Shown here piece after piece: positions 922 to 15,488 of a stretch of DNA of 15,488 bases. The stretch spans positions 1 through 15,488 of IMG/VR virus record IMGVR_UViG_3300045988_099754. One strand, given 5' to 3'. Each line of letters begins with the position of its first letter. Position 1 is the first letter of the stretch. The position numbers and the translations under genes are program-made. The notes below the pieces were generated by a model. It saw only the letters and a list, made by a program, of their open reading frames with translations, was not told the origin of the DNA and ran no database searches. Origin of the DNA: a virus.

Positions 922-1374
922 ATGATTAAATATAGACTTCATAACATCACAGATTTTGGTGTAGAACTTCATGACTTCTACACTGAAAACTCACTAAATA
1001 ACTACATAGCCTTGTTTGTAGATTCTCCATATTGGGTTGAAAATTTAGAAACACATGAAAATGTGTATACAGGTTTTGATGGGCATAGCGAAACTCATTT
1101 AGTTAATGAAAATACAGTAGTTACCCCCAATAAATTAGGCGACTTAAATGTTTCACGTGAAACATTACATGAAAGTGAAATAGAATGGATAAAAAGACAC
1201 AATCTTGTAGAAGAAAAAGAGCCATACACTAAATCAGAAAAAATATCCTATTTATTAGCCATCTTATCTGTCATTGTCATGACAACATTTTTACTATATC
1301 TTTTCTTATCTTATGTATCATTTATAGCAGAGCACTTTTCAGAGTTCACTTGGAAAGTATTTAATATTTTATAA
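922..1374 (+). CDS. Early tail-anchored membrane protein (150 aa)
   Basis: SD GAGGAGGG at 905-912. The C-terminal hydrophobic stretch ISYLLAILSVIVMTTFLLYLFLSYVSFI suggests a transmembrane anchor. The coding sequence contains a perfect parS palindrome at 1147-1166. Confidence 0.65.
   Translation: MIKYRLHNITDFGVELHDFYTENSLNNYIALFVDSPYWVENLETHENVYTGFDGHSETHLVNENTVVTPNKLGDLNVSRETLHESEIEWIKRHNLVEEKEPYTKSEKISYLLAILSVIVMTTFLLYLFLSYVSFIAEHFSEFTWKVFNIL
1147..1166. promoter_or_regulatory. parS: parS-like site 1 (perfect, inside a CDS)
   Basis: AATGTTTCACGTGAAACATT. The 16-bp core at 1149-1164 equals the Firmicute parS consensus TGTTTCACGTGAAACA. It is translated as N-V-S-R-E-T-L. Confidence 0.7.
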
Positions 1375-2290: not shown

Positions 2291-2305
2291 AAAGAGGTGA
2301 GTATA

Positions 2306-4192
2306 ATGCCACGAAAAAAGAATATAACCTTTTGGGCTTGTGATTTTGAGACAACTGTTTGGGGTGAAAAAGTAGAGCAAGAAAAAGGTAAAAAACAAGA
2401 TTGTACAGAGGTATGGAGTGGTGCTGACGTGGCTTTATACGACGAAACCGAAACCGTAACAATAACACATTCTATCAGAGATTTTTTAAATAGATTTTTG
2501 GCAATGAAAGGAAATAATATATTATACTTTCATAATCTCGCTTTTGATGGTTCTTTTATAGTTGATTTTCTTTTGAGAGAGGGGTGGCAATGGGTACATT
2601 GCAAAGACAAAGAAATGAAGTCAAAGGAGTTCCAAACTTGCATATCTGATATGGGGTCATGGTATTGGATTAAGTTAAAATGGAATAAGACCTTTTTAGA
2701 AATTCGAAATTCTTTAAAGCTTATGCCGTCGTCATTAAAAAATATCGGAAAATCATTTGGGACAAGGCATCAAAAATTAGATATGGATTATGAGGGCGAG
2801 AGATATGCTTATTGTGAGATATCAGAAAGCGAGAAGAAATATATTAAAAATGACGTGCTAGTGTTAAAAGAAGCGTTAGAAATGATGTTTAATGAAAAAC
2901 ACGATAAACTAACGATAGGGTCATGTTGTCTATTAGAATTTAAAGGATTTTATGATGGTAAACAATATGATAAGTTGTTTCCCGATATCAGAGAGGATTA
3001 CTTGGACGAATCTATGACAGGCGTATGGAATCAGTGGGACTATATACATAAATCATATCACGGTGGGTGGTGCTATGTGAACCCTCAATACGCCCATACG
3101 GTAGTGGGTGACGGGTTAGTATATGATGTAAACTCTCTTTATCCGTCCATGATGCACAGCATTAGTGGTAACAAATATCCGTTTGGTCATGGGGAATATC
3201 ATAGAGGAACACCACCCGATGAACTTATAAGCTCTACTAATAAATATTTTTTTATTCGATTTAACTGCCGTTTTCAGTTAAAACGAGGCGCTTTTCCATG
3301 GGTACATATTAGACATAGTGCATTATATAAAGCGAATGAAAATTTATATAGTTCTAACGTTAGATACAAAGGCGAATATTATAGATATTATCGCGATATT
3401 GAGGGTCAGATGCATGATACTAATATTACTCTTACTATGACTTGTACTGACTGGAAGTTATTCCAAGAAACTTATGATATCTACGATTTGGTTATCTACG
3501 ATTATGTGTGGTTCTATGCTAGAGAGGGTTTTTTTGATGAATATATAGATAAATATGGAGAAGAAAAGAGAACGTCAAAAGGTTTTAAGAGACAGAAAGC
3601 TAAACTCTTTTTGAATAATCTTTACGGCAAATTTGCCATGTCGGATAACTCTTCCTATAAAGAGCCTTATCTTGATGAAGATGGGATTATCAGATTTATC
3701 TTGCATGAGGAACATGAGAAGAAAGTGGGGTATATCCCGATTGGTAGTGCTATTACTTCTTACGCTATGAACTTTACAATTCGTCACGCTATGGCGAATT
3801 ATGATAGGTTTTGCTATGCTGATACGGATTCTATACATTTGATAGGTCTTGATAAGGCGAATAAGGTCGTAGAACATCAAACGAATTTTTGCTGTTGGAA
3901 ATGTGAGAGTACATTTGATTTCGCGTATTATGAACGACAAAAAACTTATGCAGAACATATAGTTGAAGAGAATCATGAGCCTTGCGACCCTTACCTTGAC
4001 ATTAAAGCTTGTGGCATGAGTAATCAAGCGAAACGAAAATTTATAGAAGAGGGAAAAGACATCTCTGAATTATCGACAGGGCTTAGCATGGAAACCTGTA
4101 ATTTGAAAGCAGAGCGCGTGAGGGGAGGTATTGTGTTAAGGAATAAAGACTTTAACATTCATCAGCAAAAAGATAAAAAAATTATGATATAA
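2306..4192 (+). CDS. Family-B DNA polymerase, protein-primed (phi29 gp2-like)
   Basis: Exo I: FWACDFETT. Exo II: YFHNLAFDGSFIVDFL. Exo III: YIKNDVLVLKEAL. Motif A: YDVNSLYPSMM. Motif B: KLFLNNLYGKFA. Motif C: YADTDSIHL. All closely match the phi29 polymerase motifs. I place the start at ATG 2306 (SD AGAGGTGA at 2293-2300) rather than the ORF-track start at GTG 2297. Confidence 0.95.
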   Translation: MPRKKNITFWACDFETTVWGEKVEQEKGKKQDCTEVWSGADVALYDETETVTITHSIRDFLNRFLAMKGNNILYFHNLAFDGSFIVDFLLREGWQWVHCKDKEMKSKEFQTCISDMGSWYWIKLKWNKTFLEIRNSLKLMPSSLKNIGKSFGTRHQKLDMDYEGERYAYCEISESEKKYIKNDVLVLKEALEMMFNEKHDKLTIGSCCLLEFKGFYDGKQYDKLFPDIREDYLDESMTGVWNQWDYIHKSYHGGWCYVNPQYAHTVVGDGLVYDVNSLYPSMMHSISGNKYPFGHGEYHRGTPPDELISSTNKYFFIRFNCRFQLKRGAFPWVHIRHSALYKANENLYSSNVRYKGEYYRYYRDIEGQMHDTNITLTMTCTDWKLFQETYDIYDLVIYDYVWFYAREGFFDEYIDKYGEEKRTSKGFKRQKAKLFLNNLYGKFAMSDNSSYKEPYLDEDGIIRFILHEEHEKKVGYIPIGSAITSYAMNFTIRHAMANYDRFCYADTDSIHLIGLDKANKVVEHQTNFCCWKCESTFDFAYYERQKTYAEHIVEENHEPCDPYLDIKACGMSNQAKRKFIEEGKDISELSTGLSMETCNLKAERVRGGIVLRNKDFNIHQQKDKKIMI

Positions 4193-4227: not shown

Positions 4228-4295
4228 AATGTAATAAATAAAACATATTACATTACATTCACACTCACAGAAAGCAGAAAAAAGGAGGAAAAAAG

Positions 4296-4595
4296 ATGTT
4301 TACAAGAACATTAGTAACGGCAGAGGTTTCAGTAGAAAGAATCTACAAAGACAAGGACACGGGAGAAATCAAGAAAGATTGCTTTGACGAAAAATTGCCA
4401 AATTGCAAGACAAGAGACAAAGCAGAAATCTTGATTGAAAAGCAGTACAAAGGCGATATTGTTTCCATTTTGGATATTAAATTCAAATTAGAGAAACGCG
4501 TTATGACTGATGAACAGTTCTTATTAAATTCAGATGTTAAGAGCGAGAAAATCGTTACCGAAGCAGAATTACAGGAAATGAAAAAGGAAGATTAG
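4296..4595 (+). CDS. Possible phi29 p6-like dsDNA-binding (histone-like) protein (99 aa)
   Basis: Strong SD AAGGAGG. EKQYKGDIVSILDIK and the later EQFL resemble phi29 p6 (KRKYKGEPVQVVSVE ... EKFL) as I remember it. The C-terminus is acidic, and the gene is adjacent to the p5-like gene as in phi29. This needs a real alignment. Confidence 0.4.
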   Translation: MFTRTLVTAEVSVERIYKDKDTGEIKKDCFDEKLPNCKTRDKAEILIEKQYKGDIVSILDIKFKLEKRVMTDEQFLLNSDVKSEKIVTEAELQEMKKED

Positions 4596-4620: not shown

Positions 4621-4971
4621 ATGGTAGAAGTTAAAGAAATGAGCAGAGAATTCACAAAGGTTGAGAAGTATCTTATGACTACAGCGCCGGACATTGAGCC
4701 GTTAAAAAATATCGCGGACGGAAAATCTATTCCGATAGACGGATATATTATTTTTGATGATATCAAAGATAACGGAGATGTGCAGGAGATTGTATCTATT
4801 ATTACACCGGACAAGAAAGTATACTCCGGACAGTCTGCAACCTTTAAACAGTCTTTGAAAGATATTGAAAATGTAATGGAGGGTGAGAAGTTTTCTATTG
4901 TTAAAATTAGCGGAAAGACAAAAGCAGGGCGTGATTATATTAATTGCATTTTAGACGTGTCAAATTTATAA
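4621..4971 (+). CDS. Possible phi29 p5-like ssDNA-binding protein (116 aa)
   Basis: KNIADG ... QEIVSIITPDKKVYSGQSATF ... EKFSIVKISGKTKAGRDYINCIL parallels the phi29 p5 pattern (KNLPDG ... ETVTTIFAADGSLYSAISKTV ... ETFKVKVVQGTSSKGNVFFSLQL), recalled from memory. A terminator follows. Confidence 0.45.
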   Translation: MVEVKEMSREFTKVEKYLMTTAPDIEPLKNIADGKSIPIDGYIIFDDIKDNGDVQEIVSIITPDKKVYSGQSATFKQSLKDIENVMEGEKFSIVKISGKTKAGRDYINCILDVSNL

Positions 4972-5046: not shown

Positions 5047-5066
5047 AATGTTTCACGTGAAACATT
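5047..5066. promoter_or_regulatory. parS: parS-like site 2 (perfect)
   Basis: AATGTTTCACGTGAAACATT. It directly abuts the SD AGGAGG (5067-5072) of the packaging ATPase gene. Confidence 0.7.
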
Positions 5067-5080
5067 AGGAGGTGTTAAAA

Positions 5081-6127
5081 ATGAAAAATGATGGTTATTA
5101 TCATTGCGATAGATTGTTGACTTTAAAAGATAAAAACGGGAATACACCCGATATTTATATTGTGGACGGCAATAGAACGGCAGGTAAAAGTTATTCTATT
5201 AAGTGTAGACAGGTATCTGATTTTTTAAAAGATAAATATAGACCCGAAAATCAATTTATTTATTTATATAGGAACGTTGTTGATATGAAAAACTGTACAG
5301 ACACATATTTTGGCGATATATCTGAAAAATTCGAGGGTTATGTTATGACTGAAAAAAGTTTGATGAACGGTTCTTTGATTCAATTATTTTTGAATGAAGA
5401 GCCATGCGGTTATTGTTTAGCTTTGTCTGTTGCTAGAAAATATAAAAAAATGCGTGGGTTATTTGTGAATGTCCGTTCTGTATTTTTTGATGAATATCAA
5501 GACGAGGATAATGTATATTTATCAAATGAGGTGAATAAACTTTTATCGTTGCTTACAACTATTAGTGCAGGACACGGAAAGCAACATAGAAGAGTTATGC
5601 TATATATGGCTTCAAATACTGTGTCACTATTAAACCCTTATTATAATGTGTTTGGGATTAACAAAATGTTAAAATACAACACTAAATTTTTACGAGGTGA
5701 CGGTTGGGTATTTGAGCGGACGTATAATGAAAATGCGTCTACAGCTTATCAGGAAAGTGGTATTGCGCGAGCGTTTCAAGGTGCTAGTTATAATGAATAC
5801 GCGAGCGAAAATAAATATCTAAACGACAACGATTGTTTAATCGGTAAACCTAGCGGACAATCGCGTTATATTTGTACAATTAGGTTTAATGAAAAAATGT
5901 ACAATGCAAGAAGATATGATGCTTGTATATATATATCAACAGGGGCAGATGAAAGTTTTCCGATACGTATATGCTTTACAAAAAATGATGTCATAGACAA
6001 CACAGCTATACGAGTGAATTCAACCCATTATATCGTCACGATGCTACGGGAATATTTCAACAGAGGATTGCTTTTATTTGAAAATTTAGAATGTAAGAAC
6101 ATGATATTTGATGTCATATCGTTTTAA
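5081..6127 (+). CDS. DNA encapsidation ATPase (phi29 gp16-like)
   Basis: Walker A GNRTAGKSY and Walker B VFFDEYQ. QFIYLYR, NEVNKLLSLL and SNTVSLLNPYY parallel phi29 gp16 (GARGIGKSY, QFIYVRR, FDEF, NEVSALLNL, SNAVSVVNPYF). I place the start at ATG 5081, 8 nt after the SD, rather than GTG 5072. Confidence 0.9.
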   Translation: MKNDGYYHCDRLLTLKDKNGNTPDIYIVDGNRTAGKSYSIKCRQVSDFLKDKYRPENQFIYLYRNVVDMKNCTDTYFGDISEKFEGYVMTEKSLMNGSLIQLFLNEEPCGYCLALSVARKYKKMRGLFVNVRSVFFDEYQDEDNVYLSNEVNKLLSLLTTISAGHGKQHRRVMLYMASNTVSLLNPYYNVFGINKMLKYNTKFLRGDGWVFERTYNENASTAYQESGIARAFQGASYNEYASENKYLNDNDCLIGKPSGQSRYICTIRFNEKMYNARRYDACIYISTGADESFPIRICFTKNDVIDNTAIRVNSTHYIVTMLREYFNRGLLLFENLECKNMIFDVISF

Positions 6128-6145
6128 TGTTTCACGTAAAACATT
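6126..6145. promoter_or_regulatory. parS: parS-like site 3 (15/16 core)
   Basis: AATGTTTCACGTAAAACATT. It overlaps the ATPase stop codon, and its last two bases are the first two of the -35 TTGACA at 6144-6149. Confidence 0.65.
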
Positions 6146-6172
6146 GACAGTTTAAATTATATATGCTATAAT
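6144..6172 (+). promoter_or_regulatory. Consensus sigma-A promoter driving a non-coding transcript
   Basis: TTGACA at 6144-6149, a 17-nt spacer, then TGcTATAAT at 6164-6172. A second TATAAT sits at 6173-6178. No ORF or SD follows for about 200 nt. Confidence 0.75.
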
Positions 6173-6178
6173 TATAAT

Positions 6179-6291
6179 GTACCCAAAATAATACGAACAT
6201 TGTAATTGATATACGCGCACATAGACAAGTAGTCTGATATCAATTTTTTGGCGTTGCGTTCCCTTTGATTCGATTATTTTGTTACGTACAT
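6179..6291 (+). ncRNA. Candidate packaging RNA (pRNA-like structured ncRNA)
   Basis: This is the only sizeable non-coding gap and it has its own consensus promoter. Folding by eye gives a terminal helix: 6179-6182/6286-6289, 6184-6192/6273-6281 and 6194-6197/6269-6272. That helix closes a three-way junction. Arm I is 6204-6212/6237-6245, with a 10-nt 5'-side loop ACGCGCACAU and an apical hairpin 6223-6226/6232-6235. A U-rich junction spans 6246-6249. Arm II is a short hairpin at 6250-6263 with loop CGUUGCGUU. The 3' end is uncertain: either the T6 at 6244-6249 or the parS hairpin plus T-run ending near 6330. Confidence 0.45.
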
Positions 6292-6292
6292 A

Positions 6293-6326
6293 TGTTTCAC
6301 GTGGGCAATGTTTCACGTGAAACATT
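6293..6326. promoter_or_regulatory. parS: parS-like site 4 (perfect) with a degenerate upstream copy
   Basis: TGTTTCACGTGGGCAA (6293-6308, 12/16) is followed by AATGTTTCACGTGAAACATT (6307-6326, perfect core at 6309-6324). The centres are 16 bp apart. The site ends 5 nt before the -35 of the late promoter. A T6 run follows, so it could also act as an RNA hairpin terminator. Confidence 0.7.
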
Positions 6327-6331
6327 TTTTA

Positions 6332-6360
6332 TTTACAAGCAGTTCTATTTGTGTTATGAT
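6332..6360 (+). promoter_or_regulatory. Late (lysis and structural) operon promoter
   Basis: TTTACA at 6332-6337, a 17-nt spacer, then the extended -10 TGtTATGAT at 6352-6360. SD AAGGAGGTGG and the holin ATG at 6381 follow. Confidence 0.65.
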
Positions 6361-6380
6361 AGAAAAAAGGAGGTGGTAAT

Positions 6381-6605
6381 ATGCAGGAAATCATGACAAT
6401 GATTAACACTTTAGGCGTACCAACAGCCGTAGCTATAGCTTCTATGTGGTATGTGAAATATCGAGAAGATAAAAATGATGAACGCCTAGAGAATTTGAAT
6501 GAAGCGCATAAACAGGAAATGACAGATATCACAGAAGCGTTGAACAACAACACACTTGCGCTTCAAAGAATATGCGATACATTTGAACAAAAAAGGGAGG
6601 ATTAA
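6381..6605 (+). CDS. Holin, BhlA/UviB-like (74 aa)
   Basis: A single N-terminal transmembrane segment (LGVPTAVAIASMWYV) is followed by a charged coiled-coil tail (KYREDKNDERLENLNEAHKQE...), the BhlA-family layout. The gene lies directly upstream of the endolysin. Confidence 0.6.
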   Translation: MQEIMTMINTLGVPTAVAIASMWYVKYREDKNDERLENLNEAHKQEMTDITEALNNNTLALQRICDTFEQKRED

Positions 6606-7600: not shown

Positions 7601-7639
7601 CTATTCACGTGAAGCAAAAAATGTTTCACGTGAAACATT
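7601..7639. promoter_or_regulatory. parS: parS-like site 5 (perfect) with a degenerate upstream copy
   Basis: CTATTCACGTGAAGCA (7601-7616, 12/16) and AATGTTTCACGTGAAACATT (7620-7639, perfect core at 7622-7637). The centres are 21 bp apart. The pair lies between the endolysin and tail-lysin genes. Confidence 0.7.
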
Positions 7640-8667: not shown

Positions 8668-8720
8668 TATAATAAAATTTGTAAAAGGGTGACACCAAAT
8701 ATAAGGAGGTAAAATATTAT

Positions 8721-9002
8721 ATGGAATTTACAGAAGCTTTAGACGAATTAATTGATGCCGTGGCAGACGTAGAGGAACACGGAGACGCTATTGAATTCTT
8801 GCAGAACTACGATAGTGAAAGAAGTGACGAAACGGACAGCGAATGGAAAGATAAGTATACTAAACTCGAAACCGAGTACAAAAAACGCTTTAAGGAGCGC
8901 ATGAAAGAATCTGCTACTAACGCAGGTGGTGAAGAAAAGAAAGATGAAAAAGAAGAAAAAATTACCGTTGAAGATTTGGACTTTGATGGTAAGACAGAAT
9001 AA
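8721..9002 (+). CDS. Scaffolding protein (phi29 gp7-like, 93 aa)
   Basis: Small, very acidic and predicted helical, immediately upstream of the capsid gene. The C-terminal EKITVEDLDFDGK parallels phi29 gp7 ETITIEDLEAK. Confidence 0.7.
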   Translation: MEFTEALDELIDAVADVEEHGDAIEFLQNYDSERSDETDSEWKDKYTKLETEYKKRFKERMKESATNAGGEEKKDEKEEKITVEDLDFDGKTE

Positions 9003-9020: not shown

Positions 9021-10289
9021 ATGGCAGATGCAACAAATAAAAATATTTTAAAAGCGATAAGACAGGAACTTTCTTTTGAGGTGCAGAATCATTTACCTGT
9101 GGAAGTTTCAGACAATTTACAGAGTGTTTATGATAATATTCTGAATTATGCCCCTGTTAGAAATGAAATTGTACCATCATTAATTAATCGTATTGGTATG
9201 CAGACCGTGGACAGCATCGCGTGGAGAAACCCGTTAGCGCGGTTCAAAAAAGAGCCTATGCGTTACGGTGAAACGCATGAAGAGACATACGTGAATATGT
9301 GCAAAGGACGTGTCTATGATTCACAAGCAGATTTTAAATTTGCATTTCAGCAGTATCAGTCTTACATCATGAGCGTGTTTCACAATGTCAATCTTGAAAT
9401 TCAGTATCCTGTTACTGTTACTTACGACAATCTGAGAAAAGCTTTTACAAGCGAATATGGAATCCGTGATATGATTATGGCAAAAATGGAGAGTGCTATC
9501 ACAGGTGCGAACTGGGACGAATATCTTGCTATGCGTGATTTGATTAATGTTGGCTATGAAAAAGAGGTGCTTCCAGCAGTGACCGTTGACGCGATTGTCG
9601 ATGAAGCATCGGCGAAAAAATTACTGATTGAAGTAAAAAGAGCAGTTGGCGAGTTTGGTTTTCCGTTGCCTGAAAACAACCCAGCAGGGGCGACTTCTCA
9701 TGCTATGCCTACCAACCTTATTTGGATTACAACGCCTGAAGTTAATGCTCAGATTAGCGTTGACGCATTAGCATATGCGTTCCATATGGACAAGGCAGAC
9801 GTAGCAGTTCAGACGGTCATTGTAGACAAATTTGCCAATGACGCAATACAGGGAGTTCTTTGTGATGTGCGATTCTTCAACGTGCGCGACCAGTTCAAGG
9901 ACATGACAGACCAACGACTTGCGAATGTCTTATCTTGGAACTACTTCTATACACAGGTGGAAATGGTAAGCGCAAGTCCGTTCTATCCGATTCGTGTATT
10001 TACAACAGATACGGTTGTTGATGCACCGACTCTTAGTGTTAAGGCAGGAACTTACACAGCAGGACAGACACAGGAAGTAGAGGTCACTGTCACAGGTGGA
10101 ACAGGAACATATCATCAGAATTTAGTTACTCTTGAAGTAGACAGCGGTGCTACCTCAGCTAAGACGTATGTAATCCCCGGTACACATCTCTTACACACGG
10201 GAGCGGACGAGACGGGAACAATTGTGTTAAAGGCAATTTACAGACCTAATGAGACTATCACAAAAACAGCTAGTTTCACAAAAGCGTAA
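9021..10289 (+). CDS. Major capsid protein (phi29 gp8-like) with a C-terminal Ig-like domain
   Basis: SLINRIGMQ, NPLARFKKE, LRKAFTS, WDEYLAMRDL, ALAYAFHM and SWNYFYTQ parallel phi29 gp8 (SLVDRIGL, NPLKKFKKG, LKTAF, DEYEYMKLL, LAKAFNM, YWNYYYH). The C-terminal beta-rich segment TLSVKAGTYTAGQTQEVEVTVTGGTG... looks like a BIG2-type domain. Confidence 0.9.
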   Translation: MADATNKNILKAIRQELSFEVQNHLPVEVSDNLQSVYDNILNYAPVRNEIVPSLINRIGMQTVDSIAWRNPLARFKKEPMRYGETHEETYVNMCKGRVYDSQADFKFAFQQYQSYIMSVFHNVNLEIQYPVTVTYDNLRKAFTSEYGIRDMIMAKMESAITGANWDEYLAMRDLINVGYEKEVLPAVTVDAIVDEASAKKLLIEVKRAVGEFGFPLPENNPAGATSHAMPTNLIWITTPEVNAQISVDALAYAFHMDKADVAVQTVIVDKFANDAIQGVLCDVRFFNVRDQFKDMTDQRLANVLSWNYFYTQVEMVSASPFYPIRVFTTDTVVDAPTLSVKAGTYTAGQTQEVEVTVTGGTGTYHQNLVTLEVDSGATSAKTYVIPGTHLLHTGADETGTIVLKAIYRPNETITKTASFTKA

Positions 10290-10310
10290 ATTTAACGGAG
10301 GTATTTATCT

Positions 10311-11927
10311 ATGATAAATTTACCAGTACAGGGAGGGGTCGCACCACGCGACCCCGAAACAAAATTGAGATTATATAGCGGAGTGCCATGGTCTGATGAA
10401 TATGAACACGTTAGACTGTATAACTCAAAAGATGATTTATTGAACCATTTAGAGTTATATCGTAAACGCATTAACGGTATTGATTTATCACATCTTGCCC
10501 CTATAAAGGTCGGGAGTTATGATATTCGTGTACCTTTCACAGAAATGAAAGCACTTAATCTAAATTATTTAGCTTTCCAGAATAGTGGTATTTCTAATGA
10601 ATGGGTATTTTGCTTTATTGACTCTATCGAATGGTTATCAGAAAAAACAACTAGAATTAACTTCTCTTTAGACGTTTTTCAGAACAATTTTTATAGCGCA
10701 AATATTAAGCCATGCTTTGTAGAATATCACCATATCCCAAGAAGTGCTGACGGGATAGGGGTAAATATAACACCCGTAAATATCGAAACAGGTGAAACAA
10801 TCGTATCACGTCATAAAAAACTAGACTTAACACCGACGGAATGTTGTGCTTTTGTAACAAGAGGAACATCCGAACAGAGTTGGTTTGAGGGTCGGGTGGA
10901 AAATGGCGTTTATTGTTGGGGTAGTATTGGTCATTATGACGTAACTACAGATGATGGTCTAAAAGGAATTAATACACTGTTAGAAGATTATAATACCCAA
11001 GGCGCGCAAGATGCAGTAATAGGATTGTTCATGTCTCCTAAATTATGTACACTTGCATTGGGAGGAAAAGAGATAAAACCAAAAATAACGTCCATGCAAA
11101 TTTCCGACAACGTTTTTGAGGGCTATAAACCGAAGAACAAAAAGTTATATTCTTATCCATGGTTATTTTGCTTAGCTGACAACAACCAAGGTAATACACA
11201 TATTTACAGATATGAATACAGTTATAACCGAGATAAATCTCTTGAGTTCGAAAGCTACGGAACAATAGCAACATTACCGCAAGTTTTGACAGCACCTAAA
11301 AATTATAAAACACGCGAAGAACTAGGACACGGATTAATGAACGAAGCTCTTATTAACTCCTCATTTCCTATGTGTTCTTTTTCCTCTGACACTTATCGCG
11401 CATGGCTCGCGCAAAACAAAAGTTCTATAGCTCTATCACAAGTTCACACCGCCGTAGATGCTACCATAGGAACAGGCACAGCTATAGCAGGCTTGGCAGG
11501 TGGAAGTTTACAAGGAGGTCTTAGCGGTCTTGGCAAAACAACAAACGCTTTTTGGGACGCGCTTGGAATGTTAGCGAATCAGACAGACAGGGCAAGGAAC
11601 GCAGGAGTTACACATGGCAAAGCATTATCAGAAAATGTGTTGACTGGAATCAAAGAATGCGGTGTTGATTTCTATGAAATGTCCTGTAAAAAACAATTTG
11701 CGGAAATGGCAGATAGCTTTTTTGAGCAATTTGGTTACCCTATTAATAAGATTACTACCCCTTATTTACATTCGAGACACTATTGGAATTATGTGAAAAC
11801 CTCTCATTGCGGATTCACGGGTAATATTGAATTAGACCAGTTGAAAAAATTGAGAAATATATTTGACAACGGTGTGACTTTGTGGCATACTGATGATATA
11901 GGGAACTATGGTCTATCCAACGATTAA
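10311..11927 (+). CDS. Tail knob / distal tube protein (phi29 gp9-like)
   Basis: N-terminus: YLAFQNSGISNEWVFCFIDSIEW...FSLDVFQNNFY versus gp9 YIMFQNADYGNKWFYAFVTELEF...FEIDVLQTWMF. C-terminus: FFEQFGYPINK...NYVKTSHC...LRNIFDNGVTLWHTDDIGNY versus FFHKYGYKINR...NYVQTKDC...IRTIFDNGITLWHTDNIGNY. Confidence 0.88.
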   Translation: MINLPVQGGVAPRDPETKLRLYSGVPWSDEYEHVRLYNSKDDLLNHLELYRKRINGIDLSHLAPIKVGSYDIRVPFTEMKALNLNYLAFQNSGISNEWVFCFIDSIEWLSEKTTRINFSLDVFQNNFYSANIKPCFVEYHHIPRSADGIGVNITPVNIETGETIVSRHKKLDLTPTECCAFVTRGTSEQSWFEGRVENGVYCWGSIGHYDVTTDDGLKGINTLLEDYNTQGAQDAVIGLFMSPKLCTLALGGKEIKPKITSMQISDNVFEGYKPKNKKLYSYPWLFCLADNNQGNTHIYRYEYSYNRDKSLEFESYGTIATLPQVLTAPKNYKTREELGHGLMNEALINSSFPMCSFSSDTYRAWLAQNKSSIALSQVHTAVDATIGTGTAIAGLAGGSLQGGLSGLGKTTNAFWDALGMLANQTDRARNAGVTHGKALSENVLTGIKECGVDFYEMSCKKQFAEMADSFFEQFGYPINKITTPYLHSRHYWNYVKTSHCGFTGNIELDQLKKLRNIFDNGVTLWHTDDIGNYGLSND

Positions 11928-11939
11928 GGAGGTGATATT

Positions 11940-12839
11940 ATGCGAAACCCTTTAAGAGTTTTTGAAAAATGTAAGAATAAAAAAATCATTGATGATTTTG
12001 AAACAATCAAAACAATTTATTTCTATGACATTTTCGATATATTTGTAAATCGGTATCAATGGCATAACTTGCCTGAAGAAATTTTACCAATGTACATTGA
12101 ACAAACACTATTTTGGCATGGACTTGGTGTATTCATCAAAGACGATATCGCAGGATACGCTTTTATGAAAGTTGCATTATCGGGTTTGCCCGATATTTAC
12201 AATATTCCTCAAGATAGAATTGCTTACACAGCTAATGGCTATATAGAGGAATACGGTAAAGAAAATAGTTGTATATTATGGAACAATTACTCAACAATGC
12301 CGTACTACTACAAAGCTTTAATGTACGCTGACAGTATGGCGAATACTTGGAAAACAAAAGGAATTAATATGTATGCACAGCGTACACCTGTTGCACTTTC
12401 CTCATCAGACAACGAAAAACTGAGCTTTGAAGTTGTAGGCGAAGAATACGACAACTATTTACCTATTCTAAAACTTTCCGATTCGTTAAACTTAAAAGAT
12501 ATTAAAGCTTTGAACATGGGCGCACCTTACATTGTTGATAAATGTGAACAAGAATTGAGAGATTTATGGTCACAAGTGCTAACATCTTTAGGATATGAAA
12601 GTAACCCAGTAGAAAAAGGAGAGCGCCTTGTAACTGGTGAGACAGCAGGAAACAACGGACAGATTGAAGCCAATAGAAATGTTGGACTGACATTAAGAAG
12701 AAGATGTGCGAACGCTATTAACGAATTATGGGGACTCAATGTGTCCGTTGATTTCAATAGCGAGTTGCCGACCATGATTAACGGATATATACCCGAAAAA
12801 TATATGCAAAAAGGGAAAGAGGGTGACGAGATTGAGTAA
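11940..12839 (+). CDS. Head-tail connector / portal (phi29 gp10-like, upper collar)
   Basis: YQWHNLPEE, AQRTPVAL, APYIVDK, KGERLVTGE and INELWGLNVSVDF match phi29 gp10 (FEWENLPP, AQKTPVLI, APYVVDK, KKERMVTDE, INELYGLNVKVKF). Confidence 0.92.
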   Translation: MRNPLRVFEKCKNKKIIDDFETIKTIYFYDIFDIFVNRYQWHNLPEEILPMYIEQTLFWHGLGVFIKDDIAGYAFMKVALSGLPDIYNIPQDRIAYTANGYIEEYGKENSCILWNNYSTMPYYYKALMYADSMANTWKTKGINMYAQRTPVALSSSDNEKLSFEVVGEEYDNYLPILKLSDSLNLKDIKALNMGAPYIVDKCEQELRDLWSQVLTSLGYESNPVEKGERLVTGETAGNNGQIEANRNVGLTLRRRCANAINELWGLNVSVDFNSELPTMINGYIPEKYMQKGKEGDEIE

Positions 12840-15130: not shown

Positions 15131-15166
15131 AAAACCCCTCCTACAATTGAGGGGTTTTATTTTTAT
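15131..15166. terminator. Bidirectional rho-independent terminator
   Basis: AAAACCCCTC (15131-15140), an 8-nt loop, then GAGGGGTTTT (15149-15158). It is flanked by a T-run on the + strand (ATTTTTATT) and by TTTTTATAT when read on the - strand. It separates the convergent late operon and the right-end ORF. Confidence 0.85.
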
Positions 15167-15172
15167 TCCTCC

Positions 15173-15349
15173 TTAATTAATATTTTTATCTATCATTTCT
15201 CGCCTTAGTTCTTCTAACTCCTGCTCTAACTCCTTTTCTTTAATATATGCATATTCACTTTCTGGATACTTTTTCGAAAAATCGTATGCTTTAGCCCATT
15301 GATTTAATAATGCCTCGTATGCTAATTTATATAATCTTGATTCTACCAT
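15173..15349 (-). CDS. Right-end early protein, unknown function (58 aa, absent from the ORF track)
   Basis: Minus-strand ATG at 15349-15347; its A is the last base of the right ITR. It uses the ITR-borne promoter and SD AAGGAGG. Translation: MVESRLYKLAYEALLNQWAKAYDFSKKYPESEYAYIKEKELEQELEELRREMIDKNIN, with stop TAA at 15175-15173. Predicted helical. Confidence 0.6.
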   Translation of the reverse strand: MVESRLYKLAYEALLNQWAKAYDFSKKYPESEYAYIKEKELEQELEELRREMIDKNIN

Positions 15350-15488
15350 TTTTATTCCTCCTTATTTTATGCGTTATCTTTGTTTCTATAATTATAATAC
15401 CACACACACACCCGATTATTTGTCAAGTATTTTTTCATGCTTTTTTAAACAAATGGGGGTCGTGGTCTCATTGGGAATAACGTAAGCC
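15349..15488. repeat. Right inverted terminal repeat (140 bp)
   Basis: Exact reverse complement of 1-140. Confidence 0.95.
15391..15426 (-). promoter_or_regulatory. Early promoter inside the right ITR (mirror of 63-98)
   Basis: Exact reverse complement of the left ITR promoter. TTGACA at 15426-15421 and TATTATAAT at 15399-15391 on the minus strand. Confidence 0.5.

Follow-up and report, generated by a model that had tools for sequence, protein, structure and literature searches.

The window analysed here is a stretch of viral DNA of 15,488 bp (IMG/VR record IMGVR_UViG_3300045988_099754), which represents a complete linear phage genome of the phi29 type. Positions 6179-6289 of this window are the core of a separate transcription unit that has a strong promoter and its own terminator. 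It is essentially certain that this unit belongs to a real, independently transcribed and structured RNA family, and we consider it probable that the core is a divergent packaging (prohead) RNA (pRNA) of the phi29 kind, too diverged for the existing models. As far as can be judged from sequence, the RNA matches pRNA on every testable feature, yet it is not a detectable member of the Rfam pRNA family (RF00044). Its function in packaging is proposed by analogy with phi29. A sequence-only reading of the same stretch had already pointed to a pRNA-like RNA in this place, and our computational results support that proposal well. To our knowledge, pRNA is the only RNA that serves as an essential structural part of a viral DNA-packaging motor. 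It has been called unique to phi29 and related Bacillus phages (PMC11476376, a 2024 review; PMC5066667), and the recently added pRNAs all came from searches seeded on Bacillus phages (PMC12670572). A paper on Clostridium perfringens phages mentions pRNA only as the partner of gp16 (PMC3362512), and our search of the published literature returned no report of the present RNA.

Fold and covariation of the RNA

Without constraints, RNAfold predicts for positions 6179-6335 a structure of -37.9 kcal/mol (z = -3.07), comprising a terminal helix, a three-way junction and a long arm that is bulged on one side and capped by an apical hairpin, followed by a terminator. The 5' strand of the terminal helix, helix A (6179-6199, + strand, as are all elements of the RNA), reads GUAC, C, CAAAAUAAU, A, CGAACA, and its 3' strand (6266-6289) carries a conserved UUAC bulge (6282-6285) before the last four pairs. 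Pairing joins GUAC 6179-6182 to GUAC 6286-6289, CAAAAUAAU 6184-6192 to AUUAUUUUG 6273-6281, and CGAA 6194-6197 to UUCG 6269-6272. Most of these pairs show compensatory change, and the 3' strand is likewise supported by covariation. The long arm is built on helix C, in which AAUUGAUAU (6204-6212) pairs with AUAUCAAUU (6237-6245), both strands again covarying. On the 5' side only, this arm bears a CE-like bulge of 9 nt, ACGCGCACA (6213-6221), while an E-like apical hairpin, UAGAC-AAGUA-GUCUG (6222-6236), stacks directly on the helix C 3' strand; AGAC/GUCU of this hairpin is replaced by GAAC/GUUC in three relatives (L005, L006 and L060). A U-rich junction strand (6246-6249), whose U run varies in length between 5 and 7, leads from helix C to a D-like hairpin (6250-6262) made of GG 6250-6251, the loop CGUUGCGUU (6252-6260) and CC 6261-6262, and the GG/CC pairs are invariant in all lineages. 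In this fold, the two ends of the RNA pair in the long, bulged helix A, and the three-way junction that it closes opens into a C/E arm and a D hairpin.

This layout had been drawn by eye in the sequence-only reading. The interrupted terminal helix was correctly placed and is borne out by both RNAfold and covariation, and the three-way junction is recovered by the unconstrained fold as well as by the comparative data. Similarly, the coordinates were right for its arm I, which combined AAUUGAUAU and AUAUCAAUU with a 5'-side loop given as ACGCGCACAU (6213-6222) and an apical hairpin. This arm has comparative support, as do the U-rich junction and the small arm II hairpin behind it. The folding check that had been recommended, using RNAfold, returned the terminal helix, the junction and the apical hairpin. 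In addition, we observed an internal loop near the end of helix A, with CC 6183-6184 opposite U(U/C)AC 6282-6285, just inside the last four pairs. This CC/UYAC loop is kept in all lineages, being found at the same place in L081, L105, L107, L109, L111 and Clostridium phage HM2, and it could be a contact site for a protein, namely the ATPase.

Retrieval from IMG/VR with the packaging ATPase protein of the window yielded 80 loci. The homologous gap is present in 79 of them (one partial), giving 78 distinct gaps including that of the window. Among these, the RNA body (6179-6290) is far more conserved than the promoter spacer or the stretch behind the terminator, and the length of the core differs by 1-2 nt. 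Among the 78 relatives, the longest open reading frame (ORF) in the gap has anywhere from 23 to 73 codons, and this variability indicates that the gap is not coding. In alignment A1, made with MAFFT only from 78 sequences of the window's clade, RNAalifold recovered the terminator as well as helices A, C and E. Compensatory change is seen in seven pairs of A1, and hardly any pair is broken; the second pair of helix A, for instance, changes from U-A to C-G in 9 sequences, and a G-C pair changes to A-U in 21. Within this clade, the cores of the bulge (CGCAC) and of the loop (UUGCG) do not vary, so that they give no test of a loop-loop contact at that depth.

A second retrieval added clade B (26 loci, including L080), L105, the group of L107, L108 and L110, L111, and L109. 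In L080, whose ATPase is 59% identical, the same place holds a GC-rich RNA whose layout is the same, but which has a promoter of its own and another terminator than in the window. From 18 sequences of the window's clade and a structure written by hand, we built a covariance model (R1), which finds clade B and L109 over their full length (E about 1e-6 to 1e-4). A second model, built from the R1 hits (R2), matches L111 (64 bits), L105 (62 bits), L107 and L108 (about 40 bits) and L110 (35 bits), with E values from 7e-15 to 9e-7, and these matches coincide exactly with the coordinates that we had set by eye beforehand. This stepwise detection links the six lineages statistically. In alignment A3 (86 sequences), 95.7% of cells are paired versus 35-44% with slid partners, and 28 of 35 pairs change on both sides. 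The corresponding figures for alignment A4, which holds 16 representatives of the six lineages, are 90.4% versus 35-43%, with 34 of 40 pairs changing on both sides. Helix C is AU-rich in the window and GC-rich in clade B, and in A4 all nine of its pairs are compensatory and 100% of cells are paired. Thus, the covariation that the sequence-only reading had proposed to look for in homologous gaps is found both within the clade (the seven pairs of A1) and across the six lineages (34 of 40 pairs in A4). A3 and A4 are fitted to the model, and circularity was checked with the slid-partner controls, with the MAFFT-only alignment A1, with the loop-loop columns left out of the model and with single-sequence folds. 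The last of these, computed without constraints, give the same three-way junction in L056, L107, L110, HM2 and L165. Finally, a pattern scan of IMG/VR with the 3' motif CCCTT-N6-ATCTT-N3-GGTYAC returned the known lineages and one new contig, the matches in large contigs being due to chance.

The D-like loop pairs through U6255-U6259 with the CE-like bulge and covaries with it. In the window, the pairs are G6215-U6259, C6216-G6258, G6217-C6257, C6218-G6256 and A6219-U6255. Lineages A, B, L105, L109 and L111 share a register of five bulge/hairpin-loop pairs in A4 (columns 40:87 to 44:83). The model treats the bulge and hairpin-loop columns as unpaired; even so, 92.3% of cells are paired, and each of the five pairs has changes on both sides. 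The contact reads (A/G)CGCA::UGCGU in the window's clade, GGAUA::UAUCC in L111 and GUACA::UGUAC in L109. In clade B it is GCGUU::AACGC, extended by A45-U82 (CGUUA::UAACG), and in L105 it is GAAUC::GAUUC, reaching 7 bp in all (GAAUCAA::UUGAUUC). L107 and L108 have CCCA::UGGG where L110 has UCCA::UGGA; here, the register is shifted by one column, and the change between these close relatives is compensatory. The longest Watson-Crick run between cognate bulge and loop is 4-7 bp (mean 5.0), versus a mean of 2.3 for non-cognate combinations, 5 of 72 of which reach 4. No complementarity of the bulge or the D loop to the apical loop was detected. Two registers for this contact had been offered in the sequence-only reading. 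The one joining CGCA 6216-6219 to UGCG 6255-6258 is supported, with G6215-U6259 in addition, whereas the alternative that used ACGC 6213-6216 is not the supported one. Because the loop-loop pairing crosses the covarying helix C, it must represent a pseudoknot or an intermolecular contact rather than an alternative nested fold. Altogether, the C/E arm's 5'-side bulge and the D loop are complementary and covary with each other. Comparative sequence data of this kind establish that the two loops pair, and are compatible with pairing within one molecule or between two.

Transcription unit and linkage to the packaging ATPase gene

The RNA is encoded in the gap 6128-6380, the largest internal non-coding stretch of the genome (253 nt). 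Its promoter (6144-6172, +) consists of TTGACA, a 17-nt spacer and TGcTATAAT, a TG-extended -10 box, and matches the consensus at 12 of 12 positions. Of 74 promoter-like sites in the genome, two reach 12/12, and of these two only the site at 6144-6172 has an extended -10 box. In the 78 relatives the -35 box is invariant and the position of the -10 box is kept, while the spacer varies. The predicted transcription start (6179), 7 nt past the -10 box, is the first base of helix A. Behind the RNA, a palindrome half-site and a full palindrome form the 14-bp hairpin of an intrinsic terminator (6292-6335, +), followed by a U tract; this hairpin (6292-6325) with its U tract is the longest terminator-like site of the genome (14 pairs, 5 of them G-C). 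The predicted primary transcript of ~157 nt would comprise the 111-nt core and the terminator hairpin as a 3' domain. A separate promoter (TTTACA, 17 nt, TG-TATGAT; 6332-6360, +), which is not part of the RNA, serves the downstream lysis and structural genes, and the ribosome-binding site (RBS) and ATG of the next gene are located at 6367-6383. The same organization recurs elsewhere: each lineage examined has its own promoter, ending 4-7 nt ahead of the first base of helix A, and its own non-homologous terminator right behind the last base of this helix. A consensus promoter with a start at the first base of helix A is present in lineages A-E and in HM2.

The gp16-type DNA encapsidation ATPase gene (5072-6127, +), presumed to encode the protein partner of the RNA, ends immediately before this gap. 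Its product matches Pfam PF05894 (Podovirus_Gp16, E 2.6e-30) and PHROG 2150 (terminase, E 8e-53). The presumed docking partner is encoded by a gp10-type connector gene (11940-12839, +; Pfam PF05352, E 1.2e-49). The motor is thus of the kind that combines a gp10-type connector with a gp16-type ATPase. The connector's N-terminus is basic (MRNPLRVFEKCKNKK in translation), a sequence feature that is the sole hint that the RNA may bind the connector. The genomic observations on which the sequence-only reading had built, that is, gp10- and gp16-like motor proteins, a single large non-coding gap with a textbook promoter, and a left end (1-140) with no room for an RNA gene, were all confirmed. With regard to the last of these, bases 1-140 are an exact inverted copy of 15349-15488, and this 140-bp inverted terminal repeat (ITR) carries a promoter and an RBS, which leave no space for an RNA gene. 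No other pRNA candidate was found in the genome.

The RNA lies directly 3' of the ATPase gene and on the same strand in lineages A-D. In all, five diverged lineages keep the RNA right behind the ATPase gene. In the sixth, L109, it is found one ORF further downstream, as a self-contained cassette of promoter, RNA and terminator. The unusual placement next to the ATPase gene, already highlighted by the sequence-only reading, is therefore shared by most lineages examined. Moreover, an 85-nt version of the RNA with a tight junction follows the ATPase gene of Clostridium phage HM2, in which inspection by eye gives the contact GUAGUCU::AGACUAC; in a locus 93% identical to HM2 (L206), both the outer helix and the apical hairpin have pairs that changed in a compensatory way. 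In Clostridium phage CS229P1, positions 9493-10700 hold the ATPase gene and the RNA as the sole + strand unit among minus-strand genes, with the loop contact CUGUA::UACAG (by eye). It seems that this pair was inverted or moved as one module. Eggerthella phage LE1-1 (Guelinviridae) has a candidate at 1047-1151, in a 209-nt unannotated gap one small ORF upstream of the ATPase gene. Its fold (z -4.3) contains a three-way junction, the contact GGGGC::GCCCC and the 3' end GGUUAG-CGC, as in the family. Our models give weak matches at exactly the expected spots in MT835814 (16.4 bits, E 0.07) and LE1-1 (13.6 bits, E 0.41). Structured RNAs with paired 5' and 3' ends were also noticed after the ATPase genes of MT836152 (~8700-8830), MT835854 (10288-10421) and MT835814 (10649-10768). 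By-eye fitting of the layout in MT835814, MT835854, MT835904 and MT836152 was partial or failed, and the bulge/loop contact was not cleanly fitted. The fold of MT836152 looks different and is possibly an H-type pseudoknot.

Comparison with phi29 pRNA and rival explanations

Like the RNA described here, the pRNA of Bacillus phage phi29 and its relatives (Salasmaviridae) is encoded by small protein-primed phages whose motors have a gp10 connector and a gp16 ATPase. In the RF00044 consensus, as in the present family, the 5' and 3' ends form a bulged helix A that closes a three-way junction, helix C has 9 bp, a bulge of 9 nt is found on its 5' side only, and an apical hairpin sits on the helix C 3' strand (4 bp in RF00044, 5 bp here). 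A U-rich strand precedes the D hairpin (UUU in RF00044, U4-6 here), bulge and D loop are complementary over 4-7 bp and covary, and the core is of similar size (118 nt in RF00044, 111 nt here), with a longer primary transcript in phi29 and a longer predicted one here. On the other hand, helix A of phi29 pRNA has a CCA bulge, in place of which the present family has the CC/UYAC internal loop near the helix terminus. The location of the RNA gene differs as well: it occupies 6179-6289 of 15488, immediately behind the ATPase gene, and has its own promoter. This is not the position typical of known pRNA genes (PMC6266182, PMC11476376), although such a position is no functional requirement. In Bacillus pRNAs, the right-hand and left-hand loops have been reported to covary (PMC12670572).

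Outside Bacillus, a pRNA-like RNA has been proposed for the phi29-like Streptococcus phage Cp-1. As far as is known, that proposal is based on the fold of one sequence, in contrast to the present family with its covariation over six lineages. The proposed Cp-1 pRNA is not reliably found by a covariance model derived from Bacillus pRNAs (PMC6266182).

If the present RNA is indeed a pRNA, the ~157-nt transcript, or the ~111-nt core after loss of the terminator domain, would bind the prohead at the connector through its C/E/D end. Adjacent copies would then join hand in hand, G6215-A6219 of one with U6255-U6259 of the next, to build a ring. Pointing outward, helix A and its conserved CC/UYAC internal loop would dock the ATPase, and this docking would let the motor package the protein-primed linear genome.

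Several observations weigh against the identification of this RNA as a pRNA. The Rfam check that the sequence-only reading had recommended came out negative: RF00044 (gathering threshold 100 bits), which found phi29 pRNA at 145 bits in a control, gave no match in the window, nor at E <= 10 in 6050-6450 or in eight relatives. Searches with 4227 Rfam families, over the whole window at gathering score and over 6050-6450 at E <= 10, returned only chance miRNA-like matches from palindromes, and eight relatives searched likewise yielded nothing of relevance. Our own models do not detect phi29 pRNA either, and given this lack of cross-detection, common descent with the Bacillus pRNA is unproven and the likeness could be convergent. 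In structure, the D helix has 6 bp and a loop of 5 nt in phi29 pRNA versus 2-5 bp and 7-9 nt here, and the junction strands are longer here in most lineages. With 14 diverged sequences, MAFFT and RNAalifold recovered helix A only, the interior helices needing a structure-aware alignment, so that the cross-lineage pair counts rest on model-guided alignments. Beyond the six lineages, our models gave no significant match in HM2, CS229P1, MT835854, MT835904 or phiCPV4. As the scores for HM2, CS229P1, LE1-1 and MT835814 are non-significant, these candidates rest on inspection. In addition, C. perfringens phage phiCPV4 has just 31 nt after its ATPase gene, with no room for an RNA, which indicates that the ATPase-RNA arrangement is not universal. 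Lastly, expression, prohead binding and a packaging role are predictions.

The rival that survives best, which we regard as rather unlikely, is that of a structured non-coding RNA whose bulge and loop pair within one molecule as a pseudoknot and that has another function, such as a regulatory RNA of the early/late switch, a protein-sequestering RNA or an anti-defence decoy. Covariation shows that the two loops pair, not whether two molecules join. In the window's clade, moreover, the short D arm makes such a pseudoknot sterically easy, a further point against a pRNA: the D helix is just GG/CC, its loop has 9 nt and the strands on either side have 3-5 nt, so that the loop could reach the bulge atop the 9-bp helix C. 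Three-way-junction RNAs with an intramolecular contact, for example between stems I and II of the hammerhead, also bring loops on two arms together, and are relevant here solely as a structural model for this pseudoknot. Contacts of the hammerhead type are, however, mostly non-canonical rather than runs of 4-7 contiguous Watson-Crick pairs, and they have no link to packaging genes. The lack of an RF00044 match and the location of the RNA at the boundary between replication and lysis/structural genes, flanked by an operator-like palindrome, would also fit a function other than packaging. Yet under this explanation the element-by-element likeness to phi29 pRNA would be a coincidence, and so would the restriction to phages with gp10/gp16 motors and the linkage to the ATPase gene through rearrangements. 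The loops covary with each other, whereas pairing with a target mRNA should have kept them constant, and none of the alternative functions has positive evidence.

Much less probable is a cis-acting intergenic element, be it a 3' untranslated region (UTR) or stabilizer of the ATPase mRNA, or an attenuator or processing site for read-through into the lysis and structural genes. The location between two gene blocks of the same strand and the overlap of the terminator with the next promoter speak for it, as do CS229P1 and MT835854, in which no clear promoter was seen between the ATPase stop codon and the RNA. However, a consensus promoter of its own starts the RNA at helix A in lineages A-E and HM2, the downstream genes are served by a separate promoter, and in L109 one gene separates the self-contained cassette from the ATPase gene. 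The gene that follows the RNA in CS229P1 is convergent, so that the RNA cannot be its leader. Furthermore, a plain terminator or UTR needs no covarying three-way junction with a loop-loop contact. As for the view that there is no functional RNA at all, but a short minus-strand gene (ORF 6152-6325, 57 aa, with an ATG) or a chance fold of the kind that AT-rich spacers form readily, we give it almost no credence, because the ORF is not conserved and was rejected as a gene (23-73 codons in the gaps of 78 relatives, with a core varying by 1-2 nt), substitutions are compensatory in pairs and not codon-wise, and GC-rich sequences of other lineages adopt the same fold.

Genome context and implications for phi29-type motors

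A palindrome, TGTTTCACGTAAAACA (6128-6143, no strand assigned), abuts the -35 box of the RNA promoter and is one mismatch away from a recurrent 16-bp palindrome, TGTTTCACGTGAAACA. The mismatch, a change of the first G to A, occurs in the window only, and the site is perfect in nearly all relatives. The 16-bp palindrome has five copies in the window (1149-1164, 5049-5064, 6128-6143, 6309-6324 and 7622-7637) versus 0.13 expected. It is also present in CS229P1 (L162, ~10527-10544), MT835854 (L161, ~10436-10451) and L080 (three copies, 4293-4365), and as a variant in L163 (6218-6235). It is kept in phages whose ATPases are just ~36-60% identical, mostly beside promoters or inside terminators. The copy at 6128-6143 is probably an operator, and the recurrent palindrome looks like the operator of a conserved regulator that doubles here as the RNA terminator. 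A 63-aa ORF (1386-1577, +) encodes an AbrB/MazE-type DNA-binding domain (PF04014, E 8e-7), and its product is a candidate binder of this palindrome. We also considered the palindromes as parts of the RNA and rejected this idea: in L080 and L081 they lie 3' of a second promoter, and the RNA terminator differs.

The major genes of the window are all on the + strand and all phi29-like in kind. Besides the ATPase and connector genes, they include those for a type-B DNA polymerase (2297-4192, +), a phi29-type major capsid protein (9021-10289, +), a GH25 endolysin, a tail lysozyme and a gp9 tail knob. A 236-aa ORF just 5' of the polymerase gene (1580-2290, +) has no family match and, by its position, is likely to encode the terminal protein. 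The ORF at 4621-4971 (+) weakly matches the single-stranded-DNA-binding protein of phi29 (PF17427, E 0.003). At the genome ends, the perfect 140-bp ITR holds a promoter-like site and an RBS, so that the right end should drive a 58-aa ORF (15349-15173, -), which ends at a bidirectional terminator (15131-15158) and would be the sole leftward gene of the genome. Megablast with the whole window gave no match among GenBank phages, and no near-identical phage. The nearest ATPases (36-39% identical) are encoded by Clostridium phages CS229P1-3 and HM2 and by phage contigs from human faeces, and the hosts are probably gut Clostridia rather than Bacillus. Two of these relatives can be cultured, HM2 on C. 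saccharoperbutylacetonicum and CS229P1 on C. symbiosum DA229.

Our results suggest that packaging motors with an RNA component also occur outside the Bacillus phages. On balance, we lean towards the view that packaging RNA is an old and widespread part of phi29-type motors, and that the RNA family described here represents a second class of pRNA, deeply diverged, which occurs in phi29-like phages of gut anaerobes and travels with the ATPase gene as a two-part module. The family is shown for six metagenomic lineages, and it likely extends to HM2 and CS229P1 and possibly to LE1-1. A covariance model for it would allow annotation of a region that is now blank in many gut phage genomes. For RNA nanotechnology, the family would offer new modules that combine a three-way junction with kissing loops, some of them with 7-bp contacts. 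If the present interpretation is true, it provides independent comparative data on which parts of pRNA are essential (the length of helix C, the one-sided bulge, the U-rich junction and the loop-loop contact) and shows which parts vary freely, such as the D arm and the details of helix A. That the RNA stays linked to the ATPase gene suggests that it has co-evolved with gp16, and the ancestral use of RNA in phi29-type motors would become testable.

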